Assembly (NCBI GenBank): GCA_963842165.1
Contig: CAWJFK010000025.1
Coordinates: forward strand, 125,681-189,680
Length of the DNA stretch: 64,000 nucleotides
Direction of reading: 5' to 3'
Source of the DNA: an uncultured Thermoplasmata archaeon
GTDB taxonomy: Archaea > Thermoplasmatota > Thermoplasmata > Lutacidiplasmatales > UBA184
Shown here: in pieces, positions 10,619 through 52,270 of the stretch
Numbering within the stretch: the stretch's first letter is position 1
How the letters are laid out: the number at the start of each line of letters is the position of its first letter
Program-made: the position numbers and the translations under genes
The notes under the pieces: model-generated
Told to the model about the DNA's origin: nothing
Seen by the model: only the letters and a program-made list of their open reading frames with translations
Databases searched by the model: none

Positions 10619-10624
10619 GCGAGC

Positions 10625-14308: not shown

Positions 14309-14310
14309 CG

Positions 14311-22788: not shown

Positions 22789-23337
22789 TTGGTCAAGATC
22801 CGCATCGAGAACGTCGTCGCGTCGACCTCCCTCGGGGGAGTTCTCGACCTCCAATCGATCGCGCTCGGTCTCGACGGGGCGGACTATGAAACCGAACAGT
22901 TCCCCGGCCTCATCTACCGGTTGAAGCAGCCCAAGACCGCGATCCTGCTGTTCCGTTCGGGGAAGGTCGTCTGCACGGGCGCGAAGAGCATGCACGAGGT
23001 CGAGGATTCGATCCACTCGGTGGCCGGCCAGATCAAGAAAGGAGGGCAGAAGATCAACCTGCACCCTAAGATCGAGGTGCAGAACATCGTCGGCGAGCTC
23101 CGACCTCGAGAGCGAGATCAATCTCAACGCTATCGCCGTGACCCTCGGCCTCGACCGGGTCGAGTACGAGCCCGAGCAGTTCCCGGGGCTCGTGTCCGGA
23201 TCGACGTGCCGAAGGTGGTCGTCCTGCTCTTCGGCAGCGGCAAGCTCGTCTGCACCGGCGCCCGAAAGCCCGCTGATGTCGAGGTCGCGGTCAAGAAGAT
23301 CACGAGGGAGCTCCAGGGCGCCGGCCTCCTGCGCTAG
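22789..23337 (+). CDS. tbp: TATA-box binding protein (two indels in second repeat)
   Basis: [67 protein letters not shown]...; the second repeat [27 protein letters not shown] is recovered after correcting two single-base indels. Confidence 0.85.
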
Positions 23338-27374: not shown

Positions 27375-28789
27375 TCAAGGGAGATCGAGCCAGGGCAGCC
27401 GCCGTCCGACCAGCTCGCGGAGCGCCTCCGAGAGGGCCGGACTCTCGGACTCCGCGGACAGGGGGTGCACCATGACCCGGGCCGGGTCGGTCGGGGTGAG
27501 GTCCCGGCCGAGCGAGAGCCGAGGCAGGACCGAGCGGATCACGGGTTCGACCTCCCGGTCGGCCCGACGGGTGTCCACGCCCAGGCTCCCGTCGGGGCGC
27601 ACGTATGGGCCCTGCAGCACGGGGGCGTCCTTCGCCGTCCACTTGTCCAGGAACTGTCCCACGCGGTCGAGCCCGGCCGGGGGACCGTCCTGGGCCCGGA
27701 CCGCCGGACGGTGGGCGTGGCCGACTTCGATCGCGACCACGACGCGGGCCGGCTCGACGGCGGACGCCGAACCGATGACCTCGAACCCCGAGCGAGCCAC
27801 CTCCTCGGCGATCGCGCGCTCGGCCTTCCGGACCTGCGGGTAGAGCGTGTCGTCGACGAGGTCCGGCCGCGGGAGGGAAACGATCGCGATGTGGGTTCCC
27901 CGCTCGTGCATCCGTCGGATCGCTTCCTCCCGGGAGAAGGCCTGCGCGGCCCGCACGTGGAACCACGGCTCCGCCGGCCGGTCGAGGTACGCTTCCGGCG
28001 GCGAGAATGAGGAGGGCCAGGTTCCGACGGGAGAGGGCACTCGCGACGTTCCGGTGGGGGTCGACGGGGTCCGCGAGGATGAGGGCGACCTCGGCGGGGA
28101 GGCGGGGTGGGTCCTTGGACGGCGCCTCGATACGAACCGGGACCCTCCACGACCGCGCCGCCCCGAGGAGTCCCTGGAGCGAGCCATATCGAAGGACGAG
28201 GAGCTCGACGAGGTAGCCCGAGAACCCTTCGGTGCGGGACTCCGACCCATACACCCCGAGCGAGCGGAAGAACTGCTTCGCGAGCCGGAACCTGGGCGAC
28301 GAGCTCGGGAGTCTCCCGTCCGGCGAGGTACTCCTGGTGGAACGGGGTTCGATCCACCGGGGAGAGCGGCCGGGAAGGGTCGGTGATGGCGAATCCCGGG
28401 ACCGCGTCGACGTTGAACCCCTCGAATTGGCCGCGCAAGTACGGATGCTCGGCGTACCGAGTCTCCGGGTTCGAGAGCACGGCGCGGCCGAGTGCGAGTC
28501 CCTCCTCGCGGAGTCGGTCCCGCGTCAGGTCCGGAGGGAACAGCAGGAAGAGGTCGATGTCGAGGCGGTCGGAGAGGTAGGTCCCTCGGGCGGCGCTCCC
28601 GGCGACGAGCGCGCGCACGAGGGGGCTGGAGCGCGCCGAGGCCGCCGTCCGGACCCGTTCGACCAGCTCGCTCCGTACCCGGGCGACGCGTTCCTGCATC
28701 TCGGCCGTGGGTGAGATCCGCTCGGACACCCGGGCTTCGAGCCGGTCGGCCTCGGGATTCGCGGGCGACGGGCGGTGACTGCCCTGCAC
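27375..28789 (-). CDS. cca: Archaeal class-I CCA-adding tRNA nucleotidyltransferase (frameshifted)
   Basis: ORF 27539..28789: ...LVAGSAARGTYLSDRLDIDLFLLFPPDL...; the C-terminal half is in the 27375..28250 and 27370..28254 frames. Confidence 0.75.
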
Positions 28790-29954: not shown

Positions 29955-30750
29955 CCCCCCGCGGGCGGTGCTCCGGAGTCGCGGGGGCGGCCAGCCGGAC
30001 CGCGTCGACCACCAGGTGGAGCGGGATTTCGAGCATGTACGCCCCCTGAGGGCTCTTCCGGACCGCCTCGGGCCGCGGCACAGGCTCCTCGACCCCGGCT
30101 ACGACCATACCGGCCCCCCGGAGGTACCGGAAGTACGTGGACAACGGCCGGTGGTACGACTGGGTGTACGCGGTTTCCGTCTCGGACACCCGCCACGGGA
30201 TACGGACCGTGTGTTCCTGCCGATAGCCCGCCACCTTCCGGAAGACCGTATCCCGGAGGAACTCCCGCTCGACGACCCACATGGAACGGAGGTCGATGTC
30301 GAAGCAGGGGTGGGAGATCGAGAAGACGAAGCGGCCGTTCGGTCGAAGGACCCGCCCGACCTCCCCGATCGTACCCTCCCCATCCTCGATGTCCATGAGC
30401 GACATGTGCGCGACCACTCGGTCGAAGTGGCCGGTGCTGAACTCCGCCAGGTGGGCCGCATCCTGACGAACGAAGCGGGCCCCGGTCCGTCGGCTCCGTT
30501 CCCGCCGGCGGGCGATTCGTATGTTGGCCTCGGAACCGTCGATCCCGACGGACTCCGTCGCTCCCTCGCTGGCCCACCGTCGAGTGAGGTAACCGTTCCC
30601 ACAACCCAAGTCGAGAATTCGGAGGCCCCGCACGCTTCCGAGGACGGCCCGGAGACTCGGGTCGAGGATCGCCCGGTGCCAGAGGTCGCCGCGCTCCCCC
30701 GTGCGGTAGTCGCGCCACGTCGCGAGCGCGTCCCACCCTTCCCGGACCAT
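29833..30750 (-). CDS. Class I SAM-dependent methyltransferase
   Basis: ...[21 protein letters not shown]...[17 protein letters not shown].... The 3' end is uncertain because the read-through overlaps the radical SAM gene. Confidence 0.65.
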
Positions 30751-30992
30751 GGTGCCGCGGTCGGCCTTCCGTTCCGGATATTAATCCCCCACGGTCTGGG
30801 AGCCATCGTCCGTCGCGAGAGGAAGGCGTCGGTCGGTCGGGAGGGCAGTTCTTCTTTTACCCCGACGCGTCTGGGGTGGCCCGGAGGACCCGGTTCGAGC
30901 GCGCGGGGGGGCACGGAGTCGCGCGGGGCCGATACGTACCTCCGCACTCGCGGCCGCCTCCGCACCGTTCCGAGAGCCTCCGACCGGCAACG

Positions 30993-33007
30993 ATGAGCGA
31001 CCTGGATGCGACGTGCGTCAACACGCTCCGGTTCCTCGCAGTCGACGCGGTCGAGAAGGCGAAATCCGGCCACCCGGGACTTCCCCTCGGAGCCGCGCCG
31101 ATGGCGTACGTCCTTTGGGATCGTTTCCTACGACACAATCCCGCCCAACCGGATTGGCCCGACCGGGACCGGTTCATCCTCTCGGCCGGCCACGGGTCGG
31201 CGCTCCTCTATGCGCTCCTCCACGTCACCGGTTACGACCTTTCGCTCGAGGAGCTCCAGCGCTTCCGCCAGTGGGGCAGCCGAACCCCGGGCCATCCAGA
31301 GCACGGTCTCACGCCGGGCGTCGAAGCCACCACGGGCCCGCTCGGCCAGGGATTCGGCATGGGCGTGGGGATGGCGATCGCGGAACGCCACCTCGCCGCC
31401 GAGTTCAATCAAGAAGGGTTCCCGATCGTCGACCATTACACCTACGGGATCGTCTCGGACGGGGACCTCATGGAAGGCATCGCGTCCGAGGCCGCCTCGC
31501 TCGCCGGGACGCTCGGCCTCGGCAAGCTGATCTACCTCTACGACGACAACCACGTCTCGCTCGAGGGCCCGACCGAATGGGCGTTCACCGAGAGCGTGCC
31601 CCACCGGTTCGAAGCCTACGGTTGGCAGGTCCTGTCGGTGGCCGACGGCAACGACCTCGCGGCGATTGACGGGGCGCTGCGCGCGGCCCGGACGGAGACC
31701 GACGCCCCACGCTCACCTGCGTCCGAACCCATCTCGGGTACGGCAGTCCGGTCCAGGACACCCGGGAGGCGCACGGAGAGCCCCTCGGACCGGCGAACCT
31801 GAAGGCGACGAAAGAGAAGCTGGGCTGGCCGCTCGAGCCGTCGTTCCTCGTCCCGGAGGACGTTCGTGCCCACTTCCGCGCCGCGCGAGATCGCGGAACT
31901 CGATGGCAGGCCGAGTGGGAGGCGATGTTCGCGAGTTTCCGCAGTTCACATCTCGCGGACGCGAAGCGGTGGGAGGATCAACGGGCCGGACATTTCCCCG
32001 CCGGATGGGATGCCCGCATCCCCACGTTCGCTCCCGCCACCGGGCCGATGGCCACGCGGGACGCATCGCAGAAATTCCTGGAAGCGGTCGGCCCGTTGCT
32101 GCCGGCGCTGCTCGGAGGCGCGGCGGATCTGTCCCCCTCGACCAAGACGCTGCTCCCCGGGTCATCGGATTACTCCGCGAAGGACGGGGCGGGACGCAAC
32201 TTCCACTTCGGTGTGCGCGAGCACGCGATGGTCGCGATCATGAACGGGATGGCTCTCCACGGGGGGCTGATCCCGTACGGCGGGACCTTCCTCACGTTCT
32301 CGGACTACGCCCGGGGCGGCCTCCGCTTGGCGGCCCTCCAGGGGACCCACGCGGTCTTCGTCTTCACCCACGACAGCATCGGAATGGGCGAGGACGGGCC
32401 CACGCACCAACCGGTCGAGCACTTGCTGGCGCTCCGAGCTCTTCCTCACCTGACCGTGATCCGGCCCGCCGACGCGAACGAGACCACCGCCGCGTGGCGC
32501 GTCGCCCTGGAACGCAAGGGGCCGACCGTCCTCGTGTTCAGCCGTCAGAAGTTGCCGGTCCTCGACCCCGGCGCGTACCCGATCTCGGTCGGTGTCCCGC
32601 GGGGAGGCTACGTGCTGTCCGAGTCCAACGGTGCAACTCCTAAGGTGGTCCTCATCGCGACGGGCTCGGAAGTGGCGCTCGTGCTCGACGCACAGCAGCA
32701 GCTCCAGAAGACCGGTGTCCCCACTCGCGTCGTATCTCTGCCCTCGTGGGAGTTGTTCGAAGAGCAACCGACATCGTATCGTGATTCGGTCCTACCGCCG
32801 ACGGTTCCGAAGGTCTCCGTGGAAGCCGGCGTGACGATGGGCTGGTCGCGCTACGTGGGTTCGGACGGCGCTTCGATCGGGGTGGATCGGTTCGGCGCCT
32901 CCGCCCCGGGCCCCGTCGTCCAGCGGGAGTACGGCTTCACGACCGAGCACGTCGTGGACGTCGTCCGCCGCGTTCTGGCCGCGAGGTCGGGAGGGGCGGC
33001 TCGATGA
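30993..33007 (+). CDS. tkt: Transketolase, full-length single-polypeptide (frameshift near 31750-31900)
   Basis: [42 protein letters not shown]...; the C-terminal two domains are in ORF 31925..33007. Confidence 0.85.
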
Positions 33008-35770
33008 CCCGCCTCTCCGACCTGCTCGCCGCGGGCCAGTCGCCCTGGCTCGATTTCATCCGGCGGAGTCTCCTCACGAGCGGCGACCTGCGCAAGATGG
33101 TCGAGGTCGACGGGATCACCGGGGTCACCATCAACCCCACGATCTTCGACAAAGCGATCGCGGGTAGCCAGGACTACGACGAAGCGATCAAGGCGTTGCT
33201 CGCGCGGGAGCCGCGGGTTGCCGGCCGCGGAGCTGTACGAGCGGCTCGCCGTCGAGGACGTCACCCGCGCCGCCGACGTCCTTCGCCCGGTCTTCGACCG
33301 GACCGGCGGGAAGGACGGGTTCGTCAGCCTAGAGGTCTCACCGCGTCTGGCGCACGACACGGCCGGCACCGTCGCCGAGGCCCACCGCCTGTGGGACGCG
33401 GTCGATCGTCCGAACCTCCTGATCAAGGTCCCGGCCACCACCGAAGGAATCCCGGCGATCGAGGAGTTGCTTGCGTCCGGGATCAACGTCAACATCACCC
33501 TGATGTTCTCCATGGCTCACTACGAGGCGGTCGCTCAGGCGTATCTGCGCGCCCTCGGCCGCGCTCCCGACCACAACCGACTCGCGTCGGTCGCCTCGGT
33601 CTTCGTCGAGCCGGATCGACACCGCGGTCGATCAGCTCCTCGACGCGGTGGCCACGCCCGAGGCGAAGGCGCTGAGGGGTCAGGTCGCCATCGCCAACTG
33701 CCGCGTGCTCTACGCCCGGTTCCAGGAGATCTTCGAGGGCCTCCCGTTTGCCGCGTGGGAAGGGAAGGGGGCGCGCCCCCAACGCGTGCTCTGGGCGAGC
33801 ACGAGCACGAAGGACCCTAGCGTACCGGGACACGATGTACGTCGAGGAGCTCGTCGGGCCGGACACGGTGGACACCATCCCGCCGGCGACCCTCACCGCG
33901 TTCGAGGACCACGGTGTGGTCCGGCCCGGTGCGGTCGTACGCGGGGTTCCCGAGGCGCGGGCCCTCCTCGATCGGCTGGCGCGGCTCGGGATCGACCTCG
34001 CGAAGGTCACGGACGACCTCCAGGTCGAGGGCGTCGCCCTGTTCAGTGCCTCCTACGAACACCTCTTGAAATCGCTCGACGCGAAGAAGAACGCGCTCCT
34101 CGCGGGTGCGATCGACCCGCTGTCCTGGAGTCTCGGTTCGGCCGCGTCGCGCGTGGCGACCCGGATCGCTTCCTGGCAGGAGTCGCACGTGGGCGATCGG
34201 GTCTGGAAGAGCGACCCCAGCCTCTGGCCCGCCGCCCCGCCGGCGGACGTGGCTCAGCGGATGGGCTGGCTCCGTCTCCCGGAGACGATGCATCATGAGG
34301 TCAGCGAACTCGTTGCGTTCGCGGACGAAGTTCGCGCCGAAGGGATCCGGCACGTGGTCGTCCTCGGGATGGGGGGTTCGAGCCTCGCCCCCGACGTCTT
34401 CGCCCGAATGTTCGAGCACCAAAGCGGATTCCCGGAACTGCTGGTTCTCGACAGTACCCACCCCGACGCCGTGGCCGCGATGGGCCGGCGGGTCGACCCG
34501 CGGCACACCCTGTTCGTCGTCTCCAGCAAGTCGGGGACCACGACCGAGCCACTCTCCTTCTTCCACTACTTCTGGAACGTGCTGCGCGACCTGGGCGCTC
34601 CCCCGGGGCGGCACTTCCTCGCGATCACGGACCCCGGGACCCCGCTCGAGGGGTTGGCGAAGGAACGACACTTTCGGGAAACGTTCACGGCCGTCCCGAC
34701 CGTCGGGGGTCGGTACTCCGCTCTCACTCACTTTGGGCTCGTCCCGGCGGCCCTCGCCGGAGTCGATGTCCGAACGATCCTCGACCGGGCCCGAGCGATG
34801 GCAGCGAATGTCGGCCCGACGGTCCCCGTCGCGCAGAACCCTTCCCTCGGACTCGCCGCCGTCCTCGGCGAGATGGCGACCTCCGGCCGGGACAAGCTCA
34901 CGTTCTACGCCACCGGCGCGTTCGCACCGTTCCCCGACTGGCTGGAACAGCTGGTGGCGGAAAGCACGGGGAAGATCGGCCGCGGGATCGTGCCCGTCGT
35001 CGAGGAACCTCGCCTCCCTCCCGAGAACTACGGCTCCGACCGGCTGTTCGTGGCGATCGAGGGAGGCGGGCCGCCCGACGTTCCTCTGACGGCCCACCTC
35101 GCGCGGCTGGAGAGCGCGGGTCAGCCGATCGTGCGCCTCCGCGTTCCGGAGCTGACGGACCTGGGGCAAGAGTTCTTCCGGTGGGAGCTCGCGGTCGCCG
35201 CCTCCGGGAACGATCCTCGGGATCGACCCCTTCGACCAGCCGGACGTCGAGCTCGCGAAGGACCTCGCTCGCCAGGCGATGGCCGGACCGGCGGGCAGCG
35301 GCGGTACGCCTTCCGTCCCCACGGTCCTCGCGGCCGACCCCACGGACCTCGGGAGGGCCGTGCACGAGTGGAGGAAGTCGATCCGTCCGGGGGACTACGC
35401 TGGCCTCCAGGCCTACCTCGCTCCGACTCCGGAGACGAGGGCCGCGCTCACCACGCTCCGCGGGAGGATCGGCGAGCGACACCACATCGCTACGACGCTC
35501 GGGTTCGGACCTCGGTTCCTCCACTCGACCGGGCAGCTCCACAAGGGGGGCCCGCCGTCGGGGCTCTTCCTCCAGATCGTCGACGCCCCGAAGCACGACC
35601 TCGAAGTACCCGGGACGGACTACACCTTCGGGCAGCTCATCCACGCGCAGGCGCTGGGCGATTATCAAGCGCTTCGGCAGAAGGGGCGACGGGTGCTGCG
35701 CGTGGACCTCGGAACCCGACGTTCCGGGAGGGTTGGCACGACTCGCCGAGGCCTTCGATGGCTAGGATCT
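33004..35770 (+). CDS. Bifunctional transaldolase / glucose-6-phosphate isomerase fusion (several frameshifts)
   Basis: Tal part: [24 protein letters not shown]...[35 protein letters not shown] part (in ORF 33748..37098): ...[16 protein letters not shown]...[15 protein letters not shown]...; the end ...[10 protein letters not shown] plus TAG at 35768..35770 is in another frame. Confidence 0.75.
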
Positions 35771-36390
35771 CGCTGCTGTTGTGGGATGTGGGCGGCGTCC
35801 TGTTGTCCAACGGGTGGGACCACACCGGCCGCGCGGCCGCCGCGGAGCATTTCCACCTGGACGCGAAGGACCTCGAGCGCCGGCACGAAGCGGTCGCCGA
35901 AGGGTTCGAGACCGGACGTCTGGACCTCGACCACTACCTCGCCGGCACCGTCTTTCAAGTCCCTCGCCCGTTCTCCCCGGACGATTTTCGCGCGTTCATG
36001 TGGGCTCGATCGACCCCGCACCCTCTCGCCCTCGTGTGCGCGCAGGCCCTCCGGAAGGAGGGACGGTACGTGATGGCGGCGCTCAACAACGAATCCACGG
36101 AGCTGAACGGTTACCGGATCTCTACGTTCCACCTGCGGGAGGTGTTCCATGTCTTCCTGAGCTCCTGCTACACCGGCCGCCGGAAACCGGACCCCGAGGC
36201 GTACCGGTATGCGCTGCAGATCACGCGACACGATCCCGACGAGGCCCTGTTCCTGGACGACCGGGAGGAGAACATCGCCGCCGCCGCACGCCTCGGTCTT
36301 CGCACCGTGCGCGTGCGCGATCCCGCGCGCGTCCGGGAGGAGCTCGCTTCGGCGGGGATCGTCCGGGGTAAGGAGGGGAGCGATGGAAGT
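35763..36390 (+). CDS. HAD-superfamily hydrolase (subfamily IA-like)
   Basis: [22 protein letters not shown]...FLDDREENIAAAARLGLRTVRV; the 3' end is approximate. Confidence 0.55.
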
Positions 36391-37291
36391 GGGAATCGTC
36401 GGCCTCGGAAAGATGGGCGGCAACATGACGGTCCGGCTGGTCCGGGGCGGTCACCGGGTCGTGGGGTACGCGCGGACCCCGGCCGTCGTCGAAGCGGTCG
36501 TTCAGCACGGCGCGGTCGGGGCGAACTCGCTCGCCGACCTGGTCCGCCAACTGAAGCCGCCTCGGGTCGTGTGGATGATGATCCCGTCCGGGGATCCGGT
36601 CGACCAAACCCTCGCCCAACTCCGTCCGCTCCTCTCCGCGGGGGACCTCGTCGTGGACGGAGGCAATTCCTACTATCGGGACACCCTGCGTCGGGCCGCG
36701 CTCGTCACGAGTTGGGGATTCCGATTCGTGGACGTCGGCACGAGCGGCGGGATCTGGGGTCTCGCGGAGGGGTACTCGATGATGGTCGGCGGGGCCGAAG
36801 TCGATGTCGAACGGCTCCGACCGATCCTCGAGACCCTGGCCCCCGGCCCGACGAAGGGCTGGGGCCGCATGGGGCCGGTCGGCTCGGGCCACTTCGTGAA
36901 GATGGTCCACAACGGGATCGAGTATGGCCTCATGCAGGCGTACGCCGAGGGGTTCGCGGTCCTCCAGGCGAAAAGCGACTTTGCTCTCGACCTCCACCAG
37001 GTCGCCGAGGTGTGGCGGGACGGCAGCGTCATTCGCTCGTGGCTGCTCGAACTCACCGAGGCGGCCCTCGCCGAGAACCCGACGCTGAAGGGGATTGAAC
37101 CCTGGGTCGCCGACTCGGGAGAGGGACGGTGGACCGTAACGGAGGCGATGGAGCTCAACATCCCGGCGCCGATCATCACCCTCGCCCTCCAGCAGCGGTT
37201 GCGCTCCCGCGAGACCGACCCGTTCACCGAACGCCTCCTCGCCCTGATGCGCAACAAGTTCGGCGGCCACGAAGTCAAGACGGAGCCGTAG
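36383..37291 (+). CDS. gnd: 6-phosphogluconate dehydrogenase, decarboxylating (short YqeC/Gnd-like form)
   Basis: MEVGIVGLGKMGGNMTVRLVRGGHRVVGY...GGNSYYRDT...GSGHFVKMVHNGIEYGLMQAYAEGF.... Confidence 0.85.
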   Translation: MEVGIVGLGKMGGNMTVRLVRGGHRVVGYARTPAVVEAVVQHGAVGANSLADLVRQLKPPRVVWMMIPSGDPVDQTLAQLRPLLSAGDLVVDGGNSYYRDTLRRAALVTSWGFRFVDVGTSGGIWGLAEGYSMMVGGAEVDVERLRPILETLAPGPTKGWGRMGPVGSGHFVKMVHNGIEYGLMQAYAEGFAVLQAKSDFALDLHQVAEVWRDGSVIRSWLLELTEAALAENPTLKGIEPWVADSGEGRWTVTEAMELNIPAPIITLALQQRLRSRETDPFTERLLALMRNKFGGHEVKTEP

Positions 37292-37293
37292 GG

Positions 37294-38752
37294 ATGGCCG
37301 AGCCCCTCGCTCGCCCGCACGTCTTCGTCGCCTTCGGGGCGACGGGGGACCTCATGCAGCGCAAGCTGTTGCCCGGCGCTCTTCCACCTCCAGCAGGAGG
37401 GACGGTTCCCGGCGGGCAGCATCGTCCTCGGGGCGGCGCGGCACCCGCACGACGACGCCGGCTTTCGCGCGACGTGCTCCCAATCGTTGCTCACCGACGC
37501 GGCCGGTCCCGAGTCGGAGGTCCGGACGTTCTGCGGATCGAAACTGTTCTACCAGTGTCTGGGAGGTGACGGCCCCACCGGCTATCCCGGCCTCCGCGCG
37601 CGCATCGAGCAATTGGAACGGGACCACGGCCTTCCGGGGAACCGTATCTTCTATCTCGCGCTCCCGCTGGAAGCCTTCGGTCCCGCCCTCGAGGGTCTGG
37701 GCCAAGCGGGGCTCGCCAAAGGTCCGGGGTGGACCCGGGTCGTGGTCGAGAAGCCGTTCGGCCGAGACCTCGCGTCGGCGGTAGCGCTGAACGCGCTCGC
37801 GCACCGCTACTTCGAGGAGAAGCAGATCTTCCGCATCGACCACTACCTGGGCAAGGAGACCGTCCAGAACCTGCTCGTCTTCCGGTTCGCCAACGCGTTC
37901 GTGGAGTCCGACTGGAACCGCGACCGCGTGGAGCAGGTCGAGATCACGGTGGCCGAGAGCCTCGGCGTCGAGGGGCGCGCCGGCTACTACGAGACCGCGG
38001 GCGCCCTCCGCGATATGGTCCAGAACCACGTCACCCAGATCCTCACGCTGACCGCGATGGAGCCCCCGGCCCGGCGCACCGAGGACGAGATCCGCGACGA
38101 GAAGGTGAAGGTGCTCCGAAGCACCTTGCCGATCCGCCCCCAGGACGTGGTTCGGGCGCAGTACCAGCGAGGGACGGTCGGCGGGGCCGCCGTCCTCGGG
38201 TATCGGGAAGAGCCGGGCGTTTCGCCGACCTCGACGACCGAGACCTACCTCGCCCTCCGGCTCCGGATCGCCAACTGGCGGTGGCACAACGTCCCCTTTC
38301 TGGTCCGAACGGGAAAGCGCCTCCCGGCGAAGTCGAGCCGTGTCGTGGTGACGTTCAAGGCCCCGCCGGTCTCGTTCTTCCAGTCCGAGAAGGAATACGA
38401 GATGAACCCCGACCGGCTCACGATCCTGCTCCAGCCGGAGGAGGGGTTCGAGATCGCCTTCGAGATCAAGGTTCCCGGACGCGAGATGCGCGTCCAGACC
38501 CACCGGATGAAGTTCCACTACGCCGACGTCTTCGGAGAGCTGCCGGACGGCTACGAGACGCTCGTGCAGGACGTCATGATCGGCGATGCGAGCCTGTTCG
38601 TCCGCGCCGATGAGGTCGAAGAATCCTGGCGGCTGTACGGTCCGATCCTCGTCGACCCGCCGCCGTTGGTCTTCTACCCCGCGGGCTCCGAAGGCCCCGA
38701 AGAGGCGAAGCGCCTCGCCGAAGCCTGGGGGCACCGGTGGAGCACGGAGTAG
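37294..38752 (+). CDS. zwf: Glucose-6-phosphate 1-dehydrogenase
   Basis: ...FVAFGATGDLMQRKLLPAL... (frameshift near 37370); ...EKPFGRDLASA...RIDHYLGKE...DMVQNHVTQILTLTAMEPP. Confidence 0.85.
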
Positions 38753-39518
38753 GTCGCATCGTTCACATCTACCCGGACCTACCGGCGGCCGCCCGGCGGC
38801 CGCGGCCCATCTCTTCACGCGAGCCGAGGAATCCGTCCGGGCGCGCGGTCGGTTCGCGTGGGTCCTGGCCGGCGGCCATACCCCCGAGGGTCTGTACCAC
38901 CTGCTTTCCCGGACCTACCGTCGCCGGTTCCCGTGGGGGGCCACGGAGGTCTACTTCGGTGACGAACGATGCGTGTCCCCCCGCGCCCCCGAGAGCAACT
39001 TTGCGATGGCCCGGTCGTCGCTCCTGGCCCAGGTCGCGATCCCGGCCCGCCGGATCCACCGGCTGCGGGGAGAGCTTCGCCCGCCCTCTCGGGCCGCCTC
39101 CGACTATGCCCGTCGACTCGGTTCTCCGGCCGCCCACCGGGGCATGGACCGGGCCCTGTTCGACCTGGTACTTCTGGGAATCGGGGCCGACGGGCACACG
39201 GCCTCTCTCTTTCCGAAGGATCGAGCTCTGCGCGAACGCTACCGCTCCGTGGTGAGCGTCCGCCGTCCGGGCCAGCCCCCGTTCGTCCCACGCCTCACGC
39301 TCACCCTTCCCGCGATCGCGTCCTCGCGCGAGGTCGTGTTCCTCGTCCCCGGCCCGGAGAAGGCCGCCGCAGCCGCGGCCATCTTTTGGTCCTTCCCGGA
39401 GGGCGATCCGAAGTGGCCGGCCAGCCTGGTCCGGTCCGCGGGCTCGACGGTCTGGTTCTTCGACCGCGCCGCGGCGTCCGAACTCCCGCCGGGACTTCGG
39501 CGGCGCGGAGCGGCCTAG
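38737..39518 (+). CDS. pgl: 6-phosphogluconolactonase (frameshift near 38790)
   Basis: ...WVLAGGHTPEGLYHLL...FGDERCV...LVLLGIGADGHTASLFP.... Confidence 0.75.
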
Positions 39519-40295
39519 CGACGCCCGGTCGGGTCGGGCTCGCCGGCGAGCTGGGGCGGGATGGCGCGTCGCGGCGGCAAAGACCTCGGGGCCGTTGGCG
39601 GGGAACCCGGGCCAACTCGACCCGCCCCATAGTCGGACGCCTCCCACGATGGCCTCGCGGTTGTCGCCGCGCCGGACTCCGGGCAGCATCCGGTCGAGCT
39701 TGCGCACGTTCCCCCCGCCGAGCACGACCTCGTCCGGCTCGAGCGCTGCCTCGAGGAGCTCGACTACCCGGTAGACCTCCTTCTGCCACTTCCGGCGACC
39801 GAGTCGATCGAGGCTGGCCTCCCCCACGTACTCTTCGAACGTCCGGCCCTTCTTGTACGGCAGGTGGGCGAGCTCCATGGGTTGGAGCTTCCCCTCGACG
39901 ATCATGGCCGAGCCGAGTCCGGTTCCGAGGCCCAGGAAGAGCATGTGGCCGCCGCGGTAACTTCCCAAGCCTTGCAGGGCGGCGTCGTTCACGATACGGA
40001 CCGGGCATCCGAACGCCGCCTCGAAATCGAAACCGACCCACCCGGCGCCGAGGTTGTGCGGTTCGCGAGCGATTCGACCTCGGACGACTAGCCCGGGGTA
40101 GCCCATCGCGATGACATCATACCGTTCTCCGGCCAAGAGCTTCGAGAGCCCGCGCACCATCCGTGACGGCGTGAGCCGGGGCCCGGACGGGATCCGCCGT
40201 TCCTTCGCGCTGTCGGAGAACGCGGCCTTGACATGACTCCCACCGATATCGAGCACGAGGATTCGGGAGGGTGCCCGTGGTTCCGGCGTCGACAT
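39519..40295 (-). CDS. ROK-family glucokinase (polyphosphate/ATP glucokinase-like)
   Basis: ORF 38769..40334(-): MSTPEPRAPSRILVLDIGGSHVKAA...IAMGYPGLV...; the 3' end is approximate. Confidence 0.65.
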
Positions 40296-40323
40296 GTTCG
40301 AGGCCCAGGAACGCGCGGGGCGG

Positions 40324-41065
40324 TTAAGGCTCACCGCGAGCCGGCCGGGAACGGGGCGAGTCCCGCGAGCGGCGAGGGCTCGACCCGGTCGGGAAGGCGA
40401 ATCGGAGGGACAGGAGATCCCCTCCGCGTCGGACCCCGTCGAGCTCGCCCCAGAGGGGGTGTTCGGGCGCGAAGGTCCGACCCGCCCACCAGCCGGGTCG
40501 ATTCATGTGGCCCCGCCCCGCGACCTGAGGTGCGAGCGTGAGGAACAGGGCCTCCAACCGGTGGTCCTCGAAGAACGTTCCCATGAGATGAGGTCCCCCT
40601 TCGATCAGTACCACGTCGGGGCGAATCCGCGCGCGGACGGCGTCGAGGCACCTGGGCGGCACCAATCTCTCCCGAGTGCCGCAGGGCGACCACGTCCACG
40701 CTCGGAACGTGACGGGCCCGGACCAAACGTCGGGCCCCTTGCTCATTGGTCACGATCAGTGCGGGGACTTGGCCCCGTGCGAAGAGCGGCAGGCGCAGGT
40801 CCAGTCGGCCCGTGGCCGTGACGATCACGTTCAACGGCATCGGGGGCTTCTTCAGCGAACGGCGCAAGGCGGCGTACTCGCGGGCCGCGGCAGGGTACAC
40901 GTGGTCGGCGGTCCAGGTGTGCCGAGGAACGGCTCGCAACGTGCCCGCCCCTACAATGACGACGTCGGCGAGGGCGCGCAGCAATCCCATTACGAATCGG
41001 TCGTACGGGTTGAACCCAGTGATCTCACTCCCGCTGGAGACTCCGTGGGCGTGGAGCGACACCAC
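40324..41065 (-). CDS. RibD C-terminal domain / dihydrofolate-reductase-like reductase (frameshifted)
   Basis: ...VMGLLRALADVVIVGAGTLRA... plus ...LIEGGPHLMGTFFEDHRLEALFLTLAPQVAG.... Confidence 0.6.
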
Positions 41066-41427
41066 GCCGTCAAGCGTCCTGTCGCGAAATTGCCCATGAC
41101 GAACGGCCTCGAAGAATGCGGGGGGATCCGGAGTGTCCCGTACACTCGAGCGAGGGCACGGGGCAATGGGACAGGCCGGCCCCGGGCACGGTCGAACAGC
41201 GACTCGAGCGGTGGGAGCGAATCTCGCGTCCCTCTAGGATCGGTCGCCGTCGCCGGTTGGGGCTTCGGGGAACGAAGGGTTGGGTCAGGTCCCATGTGGC
41301 GCACTTCTCGGGACGGTTCCGCCCCTCCCGCCCGACCTCGGGGCCCCTTCTAAGGTCGGTGGCGTCGGGCGCCCATCGCATCGGTCGTCGTCAGAACCGA
41401 CCTCTCCCTCGGGGTTCCGATTGAGTC

Positions 41428-41439
41428 GGAGCAATCATT
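41428..41439 (+). promoter_or_regulatory. AT-rich TATA-like element (CATTAAAATAAG) upstream of pilin gene
   Basis: The only AT-rich patch in the 440-bp divergent intergenic region. Confidence 0.3.
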
Positions 41440-41502
41440 AAAATAAGATGGACCCCGAAAAGAAACGGTCAGACCCCGAATACCCGACGGAGGAAGCACT
41501 TC

Positions 41503-42140
41503 ATGAACGTTCTCAACGCGAGCCCCCGGAACTGGAGAAAGAGACCGAGTCGGGCCGTGTCGCCCATCATCGCCACTATTCTCCTCGTGGCGGTCGCGGT
41601 CGTGCTGGCCGCCATTCTGTACGTGCTGGTCTCGGGGCTCGTCCACGGCCCCGGTCGACGCCCATTGGGAGCGCCTTCGCCGCGGGGCACCCGGCGACAG
41701 GTACTTGCGCGGCGGGGAGCGCCCAGTCGCTGGGGGCCGCGCCGATCTCGGGTGGTTGCAAGGCGGGCGATTTCATCTACACCCTTACGGTCGAGTCGTC
41801 CACGGTCTCGCTCGGGAGCGTGCTCTTCGTGGTCAAGACCGCCTCGGGCGCGGTCTACTCGGGTGGGAGCGCCAGTTCCTCCTTCGCACTGATCGATATC
41901 ACGAATCACGTCGCCGCCCTCAGCGTCACCGGTGCGACGATCGCGATGACCACGACCTGGCAAGCCTACGGTCTCACGACCACCGCTCCAACCTACACTT
42001 CGTCGAGCGCGTTGACCAACCTCCACACCATCGTGATCGACATGGGCTCCGCCTCCCCCACGACCGGCCAGGGGCTCAAGCTCGTCGCGGTGGGCACGGG
42101 CTCCTTCTCGGGCGCCACTGGTCCCCTCGCCCTGCCCTAG
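41503..42140 (+). CDS. Archaeal type IV pilin-like protein with class III signal peptide (frameshift near 41650-41700)
   Basis: MNVLNASPRNWRKRPSRAVSPIIATILLVAVAVVLAAILYVLVSGL (Pilin_N-type motif). The C-terminal domain in ORF 41448..42140 ends ...IVIDMGSASPTTGQGLKLVAVGTGSFSGATGPLALP. Confidence 0.7.
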
Positions 42141-42648
42141 TGGGTTCGTCCCTCCGCCCCCAACCCCCACTCCTTCCGCTCCGCCAGCACGACGCGTCTC
42201 CGCGCTACGCACGATCCCGCCAGCGGATACCGGCTTCCCGTCTGGCGCAACAGAATTCCGCCCCCCCGACCGGTCCCGAGGAATTCGCGAGGTCGCGCGG
42301 TAGGTCAATCGGCCGGTATGTGGTTCGAGACTGACCCATTTTCAGGGCCGGTACGCCGTCCGCTGGCCTGCCAACAGCGGACGGGCGCGTCGCGCGGGCA
42401 GGGTCTGATGCCGGGGCCACGCCTGGAACAGATTTTCGGATTCTATGCGTGTGTAACGGCTAATCCGCAACGACGACCGTTTCTCCGGCTTGGAAGAGAA
42501 CGGCGATGCCTATGCCAGGCTCCGAACGAATCTTCGGATTCTAGATCAGCCCCCCAACGAGGCAATCGAGGGGTGGCGTGAGCCTCCGGGCGAGGATTTC
42601 CCCGTTACTCAAACCCCGAGTTAGAAACGGGTTGGAGCCGTCGACTCG

Positions 42649-43194
42649 ATGACGTCTAGGCAAGGCAACGAGCGCTTAAGTCGAACACCCGATTTCCGCC
42701 TCCTATGCCCGAACGGGGCCACCGGTTGGTACGGTACCACCCGGGTTCGCTTGTCACTAGTGATCCGCGCCCCTTCGCGATACGTGTACGAGTGGTGCAC
42801 GGACTACCGGACCAGTGACTCGCGGTTCTCGAAGAGGCGTCCTCGTCCGACGTTTCGAGTGATCCGAGTTTCGCCGCGTCGCGTGGTCCGCATCCGCGTA
42901 GCCCGGGGCCGCGGTCGCGACCCCGCGATCGCCGTCGACCTGGTGCGTCTCAATCCGCCGTACTCCTGGCACCTCGATCAGATCGACGAAACCGATCGGC
43001 AGTCGCTGGATTATCGTGTTACCGCGATAGGCCCAGCGCGGACCCGCCTTCATCTGCTCTCCACCGAGCGCTGGGTCACGTCCGACCATCCGACTAAGGA
43101 AGAACTTCGGGCACAGATAGCGGCCACTTGGGCTCGGTTTGGGGCGGCCTGCGAGGCCGACTATCGTGCGGGACGGCCCGCGAGGGGACACTAA
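42649..43194 (+). CDS. Hypothetical protein, possibly SRPBCC/Bet v1-like fold
   Basis: 181-aa ORF with no frameshift; weak resemblance only. Confidence 0.3.
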   Translation: MTSRQGNERLSRTPDFRLLCPNGATGWYGTTRVRLSLVIRAPSRYVYEWCTDYRTSDSRFSKRRPRPTFRVIRVSPRRVVRIRVARGRGRDPAIAVDLVRLNPPYSWHLDQIDETDRQSLDYRVTAIGPARTRLHLLSTERWVTSDHPTKEELRAQIAATWARFGAACEADYRAGRPARGH

Positions 43195-43300
43195 AGGACC
43201 CCTTTCGGGGTCTCCTTAGAGAACTCCCTGGGCAGACAGCGGTCGGACCTGGAGGAGAGCTGGCTCAAGGTTAGGCAATGAGCCCCGTTCCACGAGCGGC

Positions 43301-44858
43301 TCAAGGTCGCGAGGTCGGGGGTTCCAGACTCGAGGGCCAGAGGGAGTAGAGGGCCCGGGGAGGGGGCTTCCTGCCCCGTCTTCTCACCAATGCGAACGTC
43401 ACCACCGAACCTAGGACCACGACGAGGACCACTCCAAGAATCGCCCATTCAATCGTGGTGGTTATCAGAGGAGTTTGGGAGAATGAGATACTCACATTCA
43501 CCGGAGAGCTGGAGAGGTTCAGTTCCCCTGATGAGGGTGTCGCGCGGTAACCCTGCACCGCGCCTATCTGGTACGAGTAGATCCCGGTCAGGGCCGGGAA
43601 AGTAACCACGGGGTCCGTCGTCATTTGGATGTCGCCGTCTAGCGTCACCTCCCAGGCGGTGCGCTGGGGAAGTCCGCTCTCCGAGAAGGTGACATTGCTG
43701 GGGGGATGATTTGCGAGGATCGCGAGCGTTCCATTCTGCGTGTTTGCCGCGTAGACCAGCCCGTCCTCGGGGTCGACCGCAATCCCACTGAAGGAGCCTC
43801 CCAAGGCCAAGGTCTGCGTAACCCTGTTCGTGGCGTCGGAGATCACGGTAACCCCGGAGGATCCGGTCGACGAACACTTGGTCCGTGATATTGTCGTACG
43901 CAACGCCCAAGGGCGACGAACTCACCGAGACATTTGCCACGACTTGATTGGTCGAGTCCGAGATGACAGTGACTGCTGGGTCGGGATAATCCCCGACGAA
44001 GATCTCCCCCTTCCCGGAGTCGTACGCAAGATAGACACCCGACACGGGCGACACGGTGGCGACGACCGAGTCCTGAGTGTCGGAGATTACGCTCACCCCG
44101 TTCGAGCCGGGGAGAAACACCTCTCCTTTCCCCGAGTCGTAGGCAAGTTCGCTGCCCTCCGACGTCCCGTTGATGGTGGCCACGACCGAGTTGGTCAAAT
44201 CCGAAATTACGCTCACCCCACTCGGCGTACCCGCGACGAAAAGCTCTCCACGGGCAGAGTCGAACGCGATTCCCCCCGGTCCTCCCTCTCCCCCCACGAA
44301 CAGTGAGGCGGAGACCGAGCCATTGGCACCCGACACGACATAGACCGCACCGGTTCCCCAGTCGGAGACGAGCGCCTCCCCCCGCGCGGCATCGTAGGCC
44401 ACTTCCTCGGGGTAGACTCCCACTTTCGTTGCAGAGGACACTCGGTGCGTCAGGGGGGACACGAAGCTCAGATTCCCCCCTGTGTCGCGAGCACGTCCGG
44501 GACTCGTGACGAGGACTCCCCCCGTACCGGAATCGTACGCTAGGTCCCGTGGGAGGGTTGAGGCAGTTTCGACGGAAGCTAGAAAGTTCCCGGAGATCAG
44601 CGTGTTGTTGGCGAGAACCAGGGTGGTGGCGACGTACCAAGTTCCGGGTGCGGCGGAAGCACCGTGAGGCACGGCCGTCGGAGCGACAAAGTGAGCGGCA
44701 ACTGCTTGGGAGACTGCCCCCGGGAAGATTGTTGATGCCACGAGGAGAATAACGAGCGAAACCTCCCACGGGCGGAACAGTTGAGACGGAGAGGCCGTCG
44801 TCACCAACTCGAACGAAGGTGGAGCACGCAATGAACCTTTCCGGAAAAGTTGGCCCAC
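43301..44858 (-). CDS. Secreted YVTN beta-propeller repeat surface protein with C-terminal TM anchor (frameshift near 43900)
   Basis: N-terminal signal/TM; repeated ...AYDSGKGEIFVGDYPDPAVTVISDSTNQVVANVSV... units; C-terminal ...TTIEWAILGVVLVVVLGSVVTFALVRRRGRK. Confidence 0.65.
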
Positions 44859-45050
44859 ACTTCATTCGAAGGCCGACGTTCTCCGCGGCCCCCCGGGAAG
44901 TAGGTCCCGCCACCTTCGGGTCCAACCTTGCATTGACCGAAGGAGCAAGGGTCCCCTGGTAAGAAGGTCGTTGTTCTGCGTTACATGGGAGCTTGACAAG
45001 GAACCCCTTTGCAAAGGCGGAGCCGAAGAGGGGCCTCGAAAAGAAGTTCA

Positions 45051-45133
45051 TGCCGGGGCCAGGATTTGAACCTGGGTACTCCTGCGAGAGCAGATCTTGA
45101 GTCTGCCGCCTTTGGCCGCTCGGCTACCCCGGC
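45051..45133 (-). tRNA. tRNA-Leu (anticodon CAA), class II with long variable arm
   Basis: Cloverleaf GCCGGGG-TA-GCC...GGC-G-GCAGA-CTCAAGA-TCTGC-[var arm]-CCAGG-TTCAAAT-CCTGG-CCCCGGC-A with a perfect 7-bp acceptor stem. Confidence 0.85.
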
Positions 45134-45159
45134 ACACCCCTCTGAGGAGCACCTCCGCC

Positions 45160-48626: not shown

Positions 48627-49014
48627 TGAAGTTGCTTCACACTTCGATCACCGTGCGCTCGATGGACGAGAGCCTCCGCTTCTACACCGAGGTCCTCGGC
48701 CTCGAGTGAACCGGCGTCGGACGATCCCGGAGAACAAGGCCGAGATCGCCTTCGTGAAGGACCGGGTCTCGGGGGGCCGGATCGAGCTCACGCACTGGGA
48801 CGGGAAGGACACGTTCGAAGCGGGGGAGCAGCTCGACCACCTCGCGTTCGAGGTCGAGGACCTCGACCGATTCCTGATGCGCGTCCGCACGAAGGGGATC
48901 CGGATCGCGAAGGAACCCTACCAGATCTCCGGTGGGTCGACCCGTCTGGCCTTCATCCTCGACCCGAACGACGTCTGGATCGAGCTGATCGAACGGGCGA
49001 AGGCGCCCGGCTGA
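48627..49014 (+). CDS. VOC/glyoxalase family protein (frameshift near 48705)
   Basis: MKLLHTSITVRSMDESLRFYTEVLGLE then ...AFVKDRVSGGRIELTHWDGKDTFEAGEQLDHLAFEVEDLDRFL.... Confidence 0.6.
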
Positions 49015-49024
49015 TCCCCGAACC

Positions 49025-50278
49025 GTGCTCCCCCCAGCAGCTCCGTCGGCGCCGGACCAGCGACGGCGGCCGCTGCTCGCGGTCCTGGTCGCGACGTTCT
49101 TCGTTCGACTCGGCTTCGGTCTGACGCTCGCGGTCTTTGCGAGCTACATCCTCGGACGGTCGACCGGGCTCACCGGAAGCAACGTGGGCGCCGCCGGTCT
49201 CATCAGCGCGATGGCACCGGTGGGGGAGTTCTCGACTGTCCTCCTGTCCGGGGCGCTCGCGGACCGGTACGGTCGCTGGCCGGTACTCTTCTCGGGGATG
49301 GCGGCGGCAGCGGTCCTTTTCGCCGTGGCCGCGACGACCCGCGACCGGTACACGCTCGGGGCGATCAACCTCGTCTTCGGGGTCGCGAGCGGGGCGATCC
49401 TGGCCGCCAGCCTCGCCGTGGTCGGCGACCGGGCGGACGAGGCGCCACGGGGGTACGAGATGGGACGTTTCGACGCGATGAACCTGTTCGGTTGGGTCGG
49501 CGGGTTCGCGCTCGGGTTCGGTCTGCTCGGAGCCCTGCCCAACGATCGTCTGGACCTGGTCTTCGCGGGCGGGGCCGTGGCCCTGGCTGGGGGCCTCGGA
49601 GTGACGGCGTGGCTCTTGCGCGGCGCGCCGACCTACCACGGTACCCCGAGCGTACTCCTTCCGGAGCGTGATCCAGAACGTCTTCCGTCGGAGCGTCCTC
49701 CTCGTCACGCTCCCTTGGCTCGTCATCTACATGCTGATCGGGACCGCCCTCGTCTTTCTCGGCACGGCCGCGGAAGGGATCGGGATCTCCACCGACGTCG
49801 CTCGCGCTCGTCATTGGAGGGGGAGGAGCGATCCTGGTGGTCACCCAGCCGTACTACGGCGGGCTCGCGGACCGGCTCGGCCGCAACCGACTGCTCACCG
49901 TGGGGGCGACCGGGTTCGTGGGCGCGATGGGGGCCGCGTCCCTCCTGCTCGCCTACGGGGTCACGTACCCGATCCTGGGCGCGCTGGGACTGAGCGTGAT
50001 CCTCGCGCTCGCCTACGGACCGGCGGCGCTGGCGGCTCTGGCGGACCTGACGCTCGAGATCGAGCCGGGCGACGACGATGGCGATCTACTCGCTGACGAT
50101 CTCGCTCGGGATGCTGGTCGGTCTGATCGCATCGACCGGCTTGTACTCCCGCTACGGCAACGAGGGGATCTACGTCTTCTTCGGGCTGGTCTCGGCCGGA
50201 CTCATCCTCCTCACGGTCGCCCGCGTTCGGGAAACGGCGAAGGCCCCGCCGGCGTCGACTACGACTCCGGCTCAATGA
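49025..50278 (+). CDS. MFS transporter (multiple frameshifts)
   Basis: TM-rich pieces in ORFs 49025..49993, 49668..50096, 49837.. and 50078..50278, including ...LSGALADRYGRWPVLF.... Confidence 0.6.
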
Positions 50279-51287: not shown

Positions 51288-52270
51288 ATGAGCGAGCCGA
51301 CGGTACGGACCCCCCTGGGCACCCCCATCGTCGGGGCATCTCCCACGTCCGGCCCACCCCCGCGTTCCACCCCCGGGCAGCGCTCTCCAAGCTCGGCCTC
51401 TCCCCGGGCAAACGGACCCGCCTCAAGCGCCTACTCTACGACTACGGGCCCGGCGGCGGCACGCTGCTGGTGCTCCCCATCGACCAGGGACTCGAGCACG
51501 GCCCGGTCGACTTCTTCGCCAACCCGGCCGCCCTCGACCCCTCCTATCAGTTCCAGCTCGCGAAGGAGGGTCGTTTCAGCGCGATCGCGCTCCACATCGG
51601 CCTCGCGGAGAAGTACTTCCACGAGTACGCGGGCGAGGTCCCGCTCATCCTCAAGCTGAACGGCAAGACCAGCATCCCCTCCGACGCCCAGTCGTTCAGC
51701 TCGCTGACGGGGACCGTCGAGGACGCCGTCCGCCTCGGTGCCGACGCGGTCGGCTACACGGTCTACGTCGGCTCGCCGGCCCAGGACCGGGACTTCCTCC
51801 AGTTCACCCAGGTCCGCGCTGAGGCCGATCGGTTCGGCGTGCCGGTGATCGTCTGGGCGTACCCGCGAGGTGAGGCGGTCGCGAAGAAGGGCGGGAAGGA
51901 GAGCCTCTACGCGATCGACTACGCCGCGCGCGTCGCGCTCGAACTCGGCGCCGACATCGTGAAGATCAACTACCCGGTCCCGTCGGAGAAGGACAAAGAC
52001 AGTCCCCCGCCCTACAACACGCTCCAGCTCTCCCCCTTCGAGATGTTCCGCAAGGTCGTCGAGAGCGCGGGCCGCAGCCTCGTCCTCGTCTCGGGCGGCG
52101 AGAAGGTCGGGGACAGCGAACTCCTGGACAAGGTCCGCTCCTCGATCGACGCCGGGGCGACCGGGATCATCTTCGGCCGGAACCTCTGGCAGCGACCGAA
52201 GGCCGAGGCCCTCCACCTGACCCGGGATTTGCATGCGATCTTCCGAGAGTACGCCGAGCCCCTCGCCTAG
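51288..52270 (+). CDS. fba: Class I fructose-bisphosphate aldolase (archaeal DhnA/FbaB type), N-terminal frameshift
   Basis: ...KRTRLKRLLYDYGPGGGTLLVLPIDQGLEHGP...ILKLNGKTS...IVKINYP... Confidence 0.75.

Follow-up and report, generated by a model that had tools for sequence, protein, structure and literature searches.

A bacterial-type pentose-phosphate operon, probably of ancient transfer origin, in the archaeal order Candidatus Lutacidiplasmatales

The DNA analyzed here (the window) is a stretch of 64,000 nucleotides from contig CAWJFK010000025.1 of assembly GCA_963842165.1, whose source is a soil-dwelling member of the archaeal order Candidatus Lutacidiplasmatales (Thermoplasmatota). At positions 30993-40295 it carries an operon for the pentose-phosphate pathway (PPP). 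It is very probable that this operon was derived from bacteria in the distant past and has been inherited within Lutacidiplasmatales, and that the frame-breaking insertions and deletions (indels) interrupting the present copy are artefacts.

Gene content and layout of the operon

Protein families were assigned using Pfam and NCBIfam models with curated cut-offs, run on frameshift-repaired translations. The locus consists of six co-oriented genes, encoding seven enzyme domains, on the plus strand, plus one convergent ROK gene:

30993-33007, plus strand: tkt, bacterial-type transketolase, 671 aa once repaired (Pfam Transketolase_N/Transket_pyr/Transketolase_C; TIGR00232)
33004-35765, plus strand: tal-pgi, bifunctional transaldolase/phosphoglucose isomerase, 920 aa once repaired (NF007080; Pfam TAL_FSA and PGI)
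35758-36371, plus strand: HAD-IA family phosphatase, ~204 aa (Pfam Hydrolase/HAD_2; TIGR01509)
36383-37291, plus strand: gnd, short-form decarboxylating 6-phosphogluconate dehydrogenase, 302 aa (NF007161, TIGR00872; Pfam NAD_binding_2 and 6PGD)
37294-38752, plus strand: zwf, classical glucose-6-phosphate dehydrogenase, 485 aa once repaired (TIGR00871; Pfam G6PD_N and G6PD_C)
38737-39518, plus strand: pgl, 6-phosphogluconolactonase, 260 aa, GTG start (TIGR01198)
39515-40295, minus strand: ROK-family sugar kinase, ~259 aa, convergent, ATG at 40295 (Pfam ROK)

The gene identities given in an initial annotation were borne out, and so were its outer coordinates (30993 and 40295); it had counted eight co-oriented genes where there are six and a convergent one. 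That annotation had also described a full-length single-chain transketolase and a tal-pgi fusion, and both proteins match their models end to end, although only after indel repair: the transketolase scored 866 bits against TIGR00232 (tktlase_bact, cut-off 682) over model positions 3-653 of 654, with its three Pfam domains in order, and the fusion protein scored 1161 bits against NF007080 (cut-off 712) over positions 3-944 of 949, with the transaldolase at the N-terminus and phosphoglucose isomerase (PGI) at the C-terminus. Gnd matched NF007161 with 447 bits (cut-off 271) and TIGR00872 with 365 bits (cut-off 297); Zwf matched TIGR00871 with 542 bits (cut-off 400.6) and both PF00479 and PF02781 over its full length, the motifs GATGDL, EKPFG, and RIDHYLGKE being readable in the repaired translation; and Pgl matched TIGR01198 with 194 bits (cut-off 124). 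With Zwf, a dedicated Pgl, and a decarboxylating 6-phosphogluconate dehydrogenase all identified by curated models, the classical oxidative branch is complete at this locus. The two best Gnd models bear conflicting cofactor labels, NADP-dependent versus NAD+-dependent. Conserved Arg residues in Zwf (in LGAAR) and in Gnd (in ART, after the Rossmann strand), which we take to be analogous to those in the structures of the L. mesenteroides glucose-6-phosphate dehydrogenase and the sheep 6-phosphogluconate dehydrogenase, hint at a preference for NADP+.

The HAD protein scored above the cut-off of TIGR01509 and below that of TIGR02247. Its nearest solved structure is 3CNH (E 3.5e-49), and a DxG variant of motif I is common to both; YihX, a glucose-1-phosphate phosphatase, and the N-terminal phosphatase of soluble epoxide hydrolase (sEH-N) are distant relatives. 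The convergent gene at the 3' end, previously labeled a ROK glucokinase, is indeed a convergent ROK kinase, but the assignment holds at family level only: with 80 bits against the polyphosphate-glucose phosphotransferase model (ppgK equivalog NF045942, cut-off 250), identity as a ppgK equivalog was rejected, and the protein can be named only as a ROK-family kinase.

The genes are tightly linked, as had been noted earlier. Start and stop codons overlap by 4 nt between tkt and tal-pgi (ATGA), by 8 nt between tal-pgi and the HAD gene, and by 16 nt between zwf and pgl; a GGAGGGG Shine-Dalgarno-like motif precedes gnd, and the stops of pgl and the ROK gene overlap convergently. The three start/stop overlaps and the motif before gnd suggest translational coupling in one transcript, in which the HAD-IA phosphatase would be coupled between tal-pgi and gnd.

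Distribution and synteny among relatives

Scanning the GTDB species-representative genomes with the repaired Zwf yielded 56 loci, cited here by L numbers where they need to be told apart. Thermoplasmata accounted for 38 of the 56 (37 genomes, 61-84% identity), among them Candidatus Lutacidiplasma silvani (L014), whose genus is placed in the order Candidatus Lutacidiplasmatales in the NCBI taxonomy, and the AcS acidic-soil metagenome-assembled genomes (MAGs) of the order's founding paper; AcS1-45, AcS1-67, AcS1-3, and AcS3-62 were among the closest loci. The best bacterial Zwf matches, from Rhodothermales, Gemmatimonadota, and Acidobacteriota, were 50-54% identical, and the nearest bacterial relatives of the operon proteins showed 50-66% identity.

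When the seven proteins were searched by tblastn, the arrangement tkt-talpgi-HAD-gnd-zwf-pgl with a convergent ROK gene proved to be shared by about 30 archaeal loci, to the extent that their contigs cover it, and the operon was found in every close relative recovered. Departures from this arrangement occur in particular subgroups. In a subclade formed by L020, L023, L024, and L056, and in the deeper L025 and L026, the gene after tkt is the PGI part only, lacking the transaldolase domain; the deepest loci (L025-L027) have no HAD gene, and their ROK gene follows pgl co-directionally; and L027 is without tal-pgi altogether. Because such PGI-only, HAD-less, and co-directional-ROK loci exist, the operon must have been remodeled within the archaeal clade.

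The closest counterparts outside the archaea are the bacterial NF007080 operons (L031-L036), which share the same fusion, the short-form Gnd, and the order talpgi-gnd-zwf-pgl, seen in L032, L035, and L036; in L031 (Rhodothermales), tkt is present as well, upstream. The archaeal operon differs from them in three respects: none of the near bacterial loci has a HAD gene between tal-pgi and gnd, none has an adjacent ROK gene, and the archaeal operon stands behind a TATA-like box among archaeal genes.

Phylogeny and origin of the operon

Neighbor-joining trees with 100 bootstraps and midpoint rooting were built for the operon proteins. In the Zwf tree, all archaeal sequences formed one clade (bootstrap 100), within which the window grouped with L001, L054, and L002. 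The sister of this clade was a group of Rhodothermales, Gemmatimonadota, and Acidobacteriota (bootstrap 100), and the archaea and their sister were together nested among Bacteroidota (Eudoraea), Gammaproteobacteria, Nitrospirota, Desulfobacterota, and a bacterium of the candidate phyla radiation. Archaeal monophyly received bootstrap values of 97 for Gnd, 100 for TalPgi, 77 for Pgl, and 67 for Tkt. Across the archaeal genomes, pairwise distances of the operon genes co-varied (r = 0.64-0.86).

In composition, the operon resembles its surroundings. Its GC content is 0.691 against 0.692 and 0.688 in the flanks, its GC content at third codon positions (GC3) is 0.870 against 0.885 +/- 0.014 for the rest, and its synonymous codon-usage distance lies inside the spread shown by equally sized blocks taken elsewhere in the window. 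The comparison of codon usage and GC3 that the initial annotation had proposed thus returned an operon indistinguishable from the rest of the contig.

Taken together, the trees, the distances, and the composition argue for a bacterial origin, one old acquisition, and vertical descent since. The genes tkt, tal-pgi, gnd, zwf, and pgl, in that order, would have come in through a single and probably en bloc acquisition, with a bacterial relative of today's Gemmatimonadota, Acidobacteriota, or Rhodothermales as the donor. The transfer would date to or before the last common ancestor of Lutacidiplasmatales and would have been followed by vertical inheritance, during which the operon may have adapted fully in composition and been placed downstream of a TATA box of archaeal type; the HAD gene would have joined later, within the archaeal lineage. 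The initial annotation had read the locus as a horizontally acquired bacterial module. It is bacterial in type and organization, but it is not this organism's own acquisition: the proteins lie inside a monophyletic archaeal clade of 37 genomes, a placement that the annotation itself had named as evidence to the contrary.

Several points weigh against this reading. The sequences in the trees were retrieved by query-derived peptide patterns, which biases the bacterial sampling to near relatives and could have missed other archaeal zwf-bearing lineages. Resolution is weak in the Tkt tree (bootstrap 67, with two bacterial comparators only) and in the Pgl tree (77), which leaves en bloc acquisition unproven where tkt is included, and with three bacterial phyla in the sister group, no donor phylum can be named. 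The direction of transfer was deduced from midpoint rooting and from how rare zwf generally is in archaea. Finally, the indels described below were judged artefactual by comparison with relatives only, not from reads.

Transfer in the opposite direction, or an ancestrally archaeal operon with Lutacidiplasmatales-like archaea as the source for some Gemmatimonadota, Acidobacteriota, and Rhodothermales, would be compatible with a root placed by midpoint only and with the mixture of three phyla in the closest bacterial clade, which itself implies transfer among soil organisms. We consider it quite improbable, since the archaea and their sister group are nested in further bacterial lineages in the Zwf tree. 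Classical Zwf, Pgl, and bifunctional Tal/PGI are, moreover, widespread in Bacteria and rare in Archaea. The gene-tree/species-tree reconciliation reported in PMC9287336 infers a gain at the Lutacidiplasmatales ancestor.

A wider scenario on the side of bacterial origin seems to us evenly poised between holding and failing. In it, the five-gene operon arrived by one inter-domain transfer from a soil bacterium akin to Gemmatimonadota or Acidobacteriota, obtained an archaeal TATA promoter, was joined later in archaea by the HAD gene and a ROK glucokinase, and functionally replaced the ancestral ribulose monophosphate (RuMP) route in a shift to aerobic sugar heterotrophy. If this is true, the operon-level picture of a single event, together with the archaeal-specific addition of a YihX/sEH-N-like HAD gene, would be new detail beyond the published gains of zwf and gnd.

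Frame-breaking indels in the assembled copy

In the DNA as assembled, gnd is the sole intact open reading frame (ORF) of the locus. Ten frame-breaking indels, absent from the initial annotation, lie within 9.3 kb (HSP, high-scoring segment pair):

31700-31710, plus strand: indel in tkt at ~31703, frame shift of -1 (tblastn HSPs change frame at 31703-31709)
33213-33218, plus strand: indel site 1 in tal-pgi, ~33215 (frame change versus relatives)
33607-33615, plus strand: indel site 2 in tal-pgi, ~33610 (frame change versus relatives)
33815-33824, plus strand: indel site 3 in tal-pgi, ~33820 (frame change versus relatives)
35208, plus strand: 1-nt insertion in a G run, tal-pgi (blastn versus intact relative L057)
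35717, plus strand: 1-nt insertion in a C run, near the tal-pgi 3' end (blastn versus L057)
36364, plus strand: 1-nt deletion at the HAD 3' end, stop codon lost (blastn versus L057)
37374, plus strand: 1-nt insertion in a C run, zwf (blastn versus L057)
38794, plus strand: 1-nt deletion in pgl (N-terminus in another frame than the rest, versus L002, L054, L030, and L057)
39524, minus strand: 1-nt insertion in a C run, ROK 3' tail, stop codon lost (blastn versus L057)

The relatives provide the reference for these positions. In L002, L003, L014, L030, and L054, tal-pgi is contiguous and was recovered as an intact single HSP. A JGI metagenome contig with an intact, 93%-identical Zwf (P0001) supplied loci L057 and L058, which carry intact genes for HAD (204 aa), Gnd (302), Zwf (485), Pgl (260), ROK (259), RibD_C, and the pilin. 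L057 is 90.4% identical to the window over 34896-42140 (7.25 kb, blastn). Of the eleven frame-breaking indels of 1-2 nt that this alignment revealed in the window, five belong to the 4.6 kb of operon sequence and six to the 2.6 kb beyond it; some are intergenic, several fall in short G or C runs, and the operon is not enriched. Within the window, the coding frame, seen as GC3 phase, switches mid-gene, and homology runs on across each switch. Codon bias persists in the shifted frames, with no in-frame stops and no large deletions, and once repaired, the proteins are 80-93% identical in amino acid sequence to those of relatives.

The rest of the window shows the same behavior. Frameshifts relative to the ORFs of relatives were located in the radical-SAM gene (~29745), the RibD_C gene (~40650 and ~41079), a glyoxalase-like gene (~48708), an MFS transporter gene (~49650, 49795, and 50040), and the pilin gene. 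The TBP gene (22792-23334) can be read only with two frame changes, and the CCA-enzyme gene (27387-28753) spans three frames with its domains in order. A codon-usage Viterbi path, by which frames were traced window-wide, switches frame all over the window, and full-length Pfam domains were recovered only across such switches (for example, AMP-binding 5-384/384). Similar gene splits were observed in relatives with 'contig_' names, which are MAGs of the MFD project (L001, L015, and L029), whereas the Illumina-named MAGs (k127_, NODE_) are all contiguous and most other MAGs are likewise unsplit, L012 being the one exception.

On this comparison, the indels are consensus errors of the assembly and not biology, because they hit the essential TBP and CCA-enzyme genes, because no cell could carry all of them, and because a 90%-identical relative has the genes intact. 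The contig names suggest a long-read origin of the errors. Programmed frameshifting was considered and rejected, as the indels are spread over the whole window and strike essential genes.

A decaying pseudogene cluster, in which the frameshifts are real and the pathway is lost, might be read from ten frame-breaking indels in 9.3 kb with gnd alone intact; we regard it as highly unlikely. Indels are at least as dense outside the operon as inside it, essential genes are frameshifted too, and the shifted frames retain their codon bias without in-frame stops or large deletions. The high identity of the repaired proteins to those of relatives argues in the same direction, as do the short G/C runs in which several indels fall, as expected of consensus errors, and the similar splits in other MFD 'contig_' MAGs but, L012 excepted, not in most others.

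Artefactual indels have practical consequences. Automated annotation of this contig produces truncated proteins, such as the public protein database entry P0003, a 421-aa Zwf from this contig (100% identity, 87% coverage), and could falsely suggest pseudogenes or missing pathways; at an indel rate of about one per kilobase, neither gene content nor pseudogenes should be inferred from the contig until it has been polished. Window-wide, 1-nt indels were seen in nearly every gene, roughly one per 0.7-1.3 kb, with further examples at 15595-18754 and 49007-50275, and the frame switches about ten times in the thiolase/DUF35/acyl-CoA synthetase stretch.

Archaeal setting and contig integrity

The genes around the operon had been called archaeal, and the window does encode aIF1A, TBP, Orc1/Cdc6, a class I CCA-adding enzyme, and an archaeal-type pilin signal peptide. 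GC content is ~69% throughout; a haloarchaeal origin, considered for this value, was rejected since the nearest genomes are Thermoplasmata.

The junctions of the operon recur in relatives. Upstream, the junction with the radical-SAM and methyltransferase genes is found again in L001, L002, and L030. Downstream, L057 and L058 share ROK, RibD_C, and pilin genes with the window, L001 and L002 share ROK and RibD_C, and L054 shares ROK; L001 and L054 run on into the tRNA-Leu/GluRS region. The operons of relatives sit inside Thermoplasmata-labeled contigs of 0.4-2.3 Mb. A search of the window found no integrase, repeat, or tRNA at the operon borders.

These observations bear on a recent horizontal acquisition, that is, a bacterial genomic island in this organism or a very shallow lineage. 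The bacterial-type proteins and the gene order, as in bacterial operons, would suit such an event, and the oxidative branch is missing in most archaea, which have neither PPP branch and rely on the RuMP route instead (PMC9700705). However, the same-order operon occurs in 37 species-level genomes of one clade, the best bacterial identity is only 50-66%, and the operon agrees with its host in GC, GC3, and codon usage; with borders free of an integrase, repeat, or tRNA as well, a recent arrival is most unlikely. A mis-assembly or mis-binning that joined bacterial PPP DNA to archaeal DNA, for which nothing speaks beyond the bacterial flavor of the proteins, can practically be dismissed, as both junctions and the archaeal flanks reappear in assemblies made independently by different studies, the operons of relatives lie within long Thermoplasmata contigs, and composition is uniform; the initial annotation was right to doubt a bacterial/archaeal chimera.

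Candidate promoter and leader

One conserved element was located upstream of the operon:

30854-30863, plus strand: TATA-like box CTTTTACCCC, ~135 nt upstream of the tkt ATG, conserved in relatives

The CTTTTACCCC box stands out against DNA of 69% GC. A CTTTTAC(C/G) box is also present upstream of tkt in L001, L002, L054, L030, L020, L023, L024, L056, and L003-5; in the first eight of these loci it is conserved upstream of tkt in the form CTTTTACCCC(G/A)(A/G)CGCGT, and further relatives have a CCTTTTCC variant at other distances. In L002, the box lies after an extra upstream gene, directly before tkt. We propose CTTTTACCCC as a candidate archaeal TATA box and promoter of the operon. The ~105 nt between the box and the tkt ATG were also considered as a leader RNA or riboswitch; this was rejected, as RNAalifold gave -4.2 kcal/mol with little covariation. 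An Rfam search of the window returned only tRNAs.

Two further observations concern the same intergenic region. A second AT-rich box, ATATTAAT, lies at 30779-30786, ~30 nt upstream of where the divergent methyltransferase gene starts. The extra gene, which encodes a 249-aa membrane protein, stands between the methyltransferase gene and tkt in L002 (2731-3480), L001, and L030, and the corresponding interval of the window (30750-30993) is without it.

Predicted pathway and comparison with known systems

From the named families, flux through the following route can be predicted. The ROK kinase would convert glucose to glucose-6-phosphate, which Zwf, Pgl, and Gnd would oxidize and decarboxylate to ribulose-5-phosphate with the reduction of two NAD(P)+. 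The PGI half of the fusion protein would return fructose-6-phosphate to glucose-6-phosphate and so let the pathway cycle, and Rpe and Rpi would have to be encoded elsewhere. The operon would show how a soil archaeal order obtained bacterial-style production of pentoses and reducing power.

The actinobacterial and cyanobacterial operon is arranged tkt-tal-zwf-opcA-pgl. The archaeal operon resembles it in clustering oxidative and non-oxidative PPP genes with tkt-tal first, and differs in that no opcA is present in the window, tal is fused to pgi, and gnd is included and placed before zwf. Among archaea, the haloarchaeal oxidative pathway is said, in work by Pickl and Schonheit of 2015, to use a non-homologous glucose-6-phosphate dehydrogenase called the 'archaeal Zwischenferment'. 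Unlike that pathway with its SDR-type 'Azf', the operon described here has a classical Zwf, a dedicated Pgl, and the full non-oxidative branch. The likeness lies in an archaeal conversion of glucose-6-phosphate to ribulose-5-phosphate with 6-phosphogluconate dehydrogenase (PMC9700705). The RuMP (HPS/PHI) route serves the same need for ribulose-5-phosphate and ribose-5-phosphate (PMC9700705) but employs unrelated enzymes and produces no NAD(P)H. Transketolase also sets the operon apart: Data 8 of PMC9287336 gives two tkt genes per genome for many other Thermoplasmatota, consistent with the split archaeal form, whereas tkt is here a single 671-aa gene of bacterial type.

The gain of zwf and gnd in this lineage has already been reported. 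According to the supplementary note of Sheridan et al. 2022 (Nat Commun 13:4110; PMC9287336), the last common ancestor of Lutacidiplasmatales (TMEG) acquired zwf and gnd along with pfk, fbaB, and others, that is, the same two genes in the same lineage as here, and the ancestral table of that paper assigns glucokinase and fbaB to the same ancestor. The main text does not mention the PPP, and the pathway table has no rows for the oxidative branch (zwf, pgl, gnd). In the sections that treat these gains, only zwf and gnd are named; an operon, the tal-pgi fusion, pgl, a full-length tkt, the HAD insertion, and a donor group are not mentioned there. Within those sections, we found no description of the operon architecture, of tal-pgi and tkt in the same block, of order-matched bacterial loci, or of the later HAD insertion. 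The operon-level view therefore adds modest detail, namely that the whole cluster including the fusion has same-order bacterial counterparts and that a phosphatase was added later, and it fits the published picture in which Lutacidiplasmatales turned into aerobic sugar-using heterotrophs by gene gains. A class I DeoC/LacD-family aldolase gene at 51338-52255 of the window is probably the fbaB listed in PMC9287336 as a gain of the last common ancestor.

Other features of the window

Downstream of the operon and outside it lies the only variable region linked to a tRNA (41.3-45.05 kb), which is a variable surface-protein region or an island remnant. The stretch 41300-45050 has a GC content of 0.63 versus 0.69 and is situated immediately 3' of the tRNA-Leu(CAA) gene (45050-45134, minus strand). 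It encodes a frameshifted class III signal-peptide pilin-like protein, an SRPBCC-like ORF, and a C-terminally anchored YVTN/NHL beta-propeller surface protein. The stretch is missing in L001 and L054, and in L057 the pilin gene is followed by genes for a NosD/beta-helix protein, an HTH regulator, and a methyltransferase. A search around the low-GC region for att-like repeats of tRNA-Leu gave a single 12-nt match, at 42408, that chance could explain, and no integrase was found there.

Thr/Ser-rich surface proteins are encoded at 1-1140 and 43301-44858; in both, repeats with the pattern Y(P/A)(V/I)TF.ETGLP.G(T/S).W.VTL precede a C-terminal transmembrane anchor, and neither has a Pfam match. At 54518-55310 (minus strand), repeated CxxC...CxxC zinc-ribbon units are followed by an RGG-/acidic-rich tail, a segment that the codon-usage model scored as non-coding. 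A beta-oxidation cluster occupies 2176-18754 and comprises genes for two acyl-CoA dehydrogenases, the beta and alpha subunits of electron transfer flavoprotein (ETF), ETF-ubiquinone oxidoreductase, enoyl-CoA hydratase, a thiolase with a DUF35-like protein, and a long-chain acyl-CoA synthetase; interspersed among them are genes for aIF1A, an NAD(P)HX repair fusion, an arginase-family protein, and a Bud32-like kinase.

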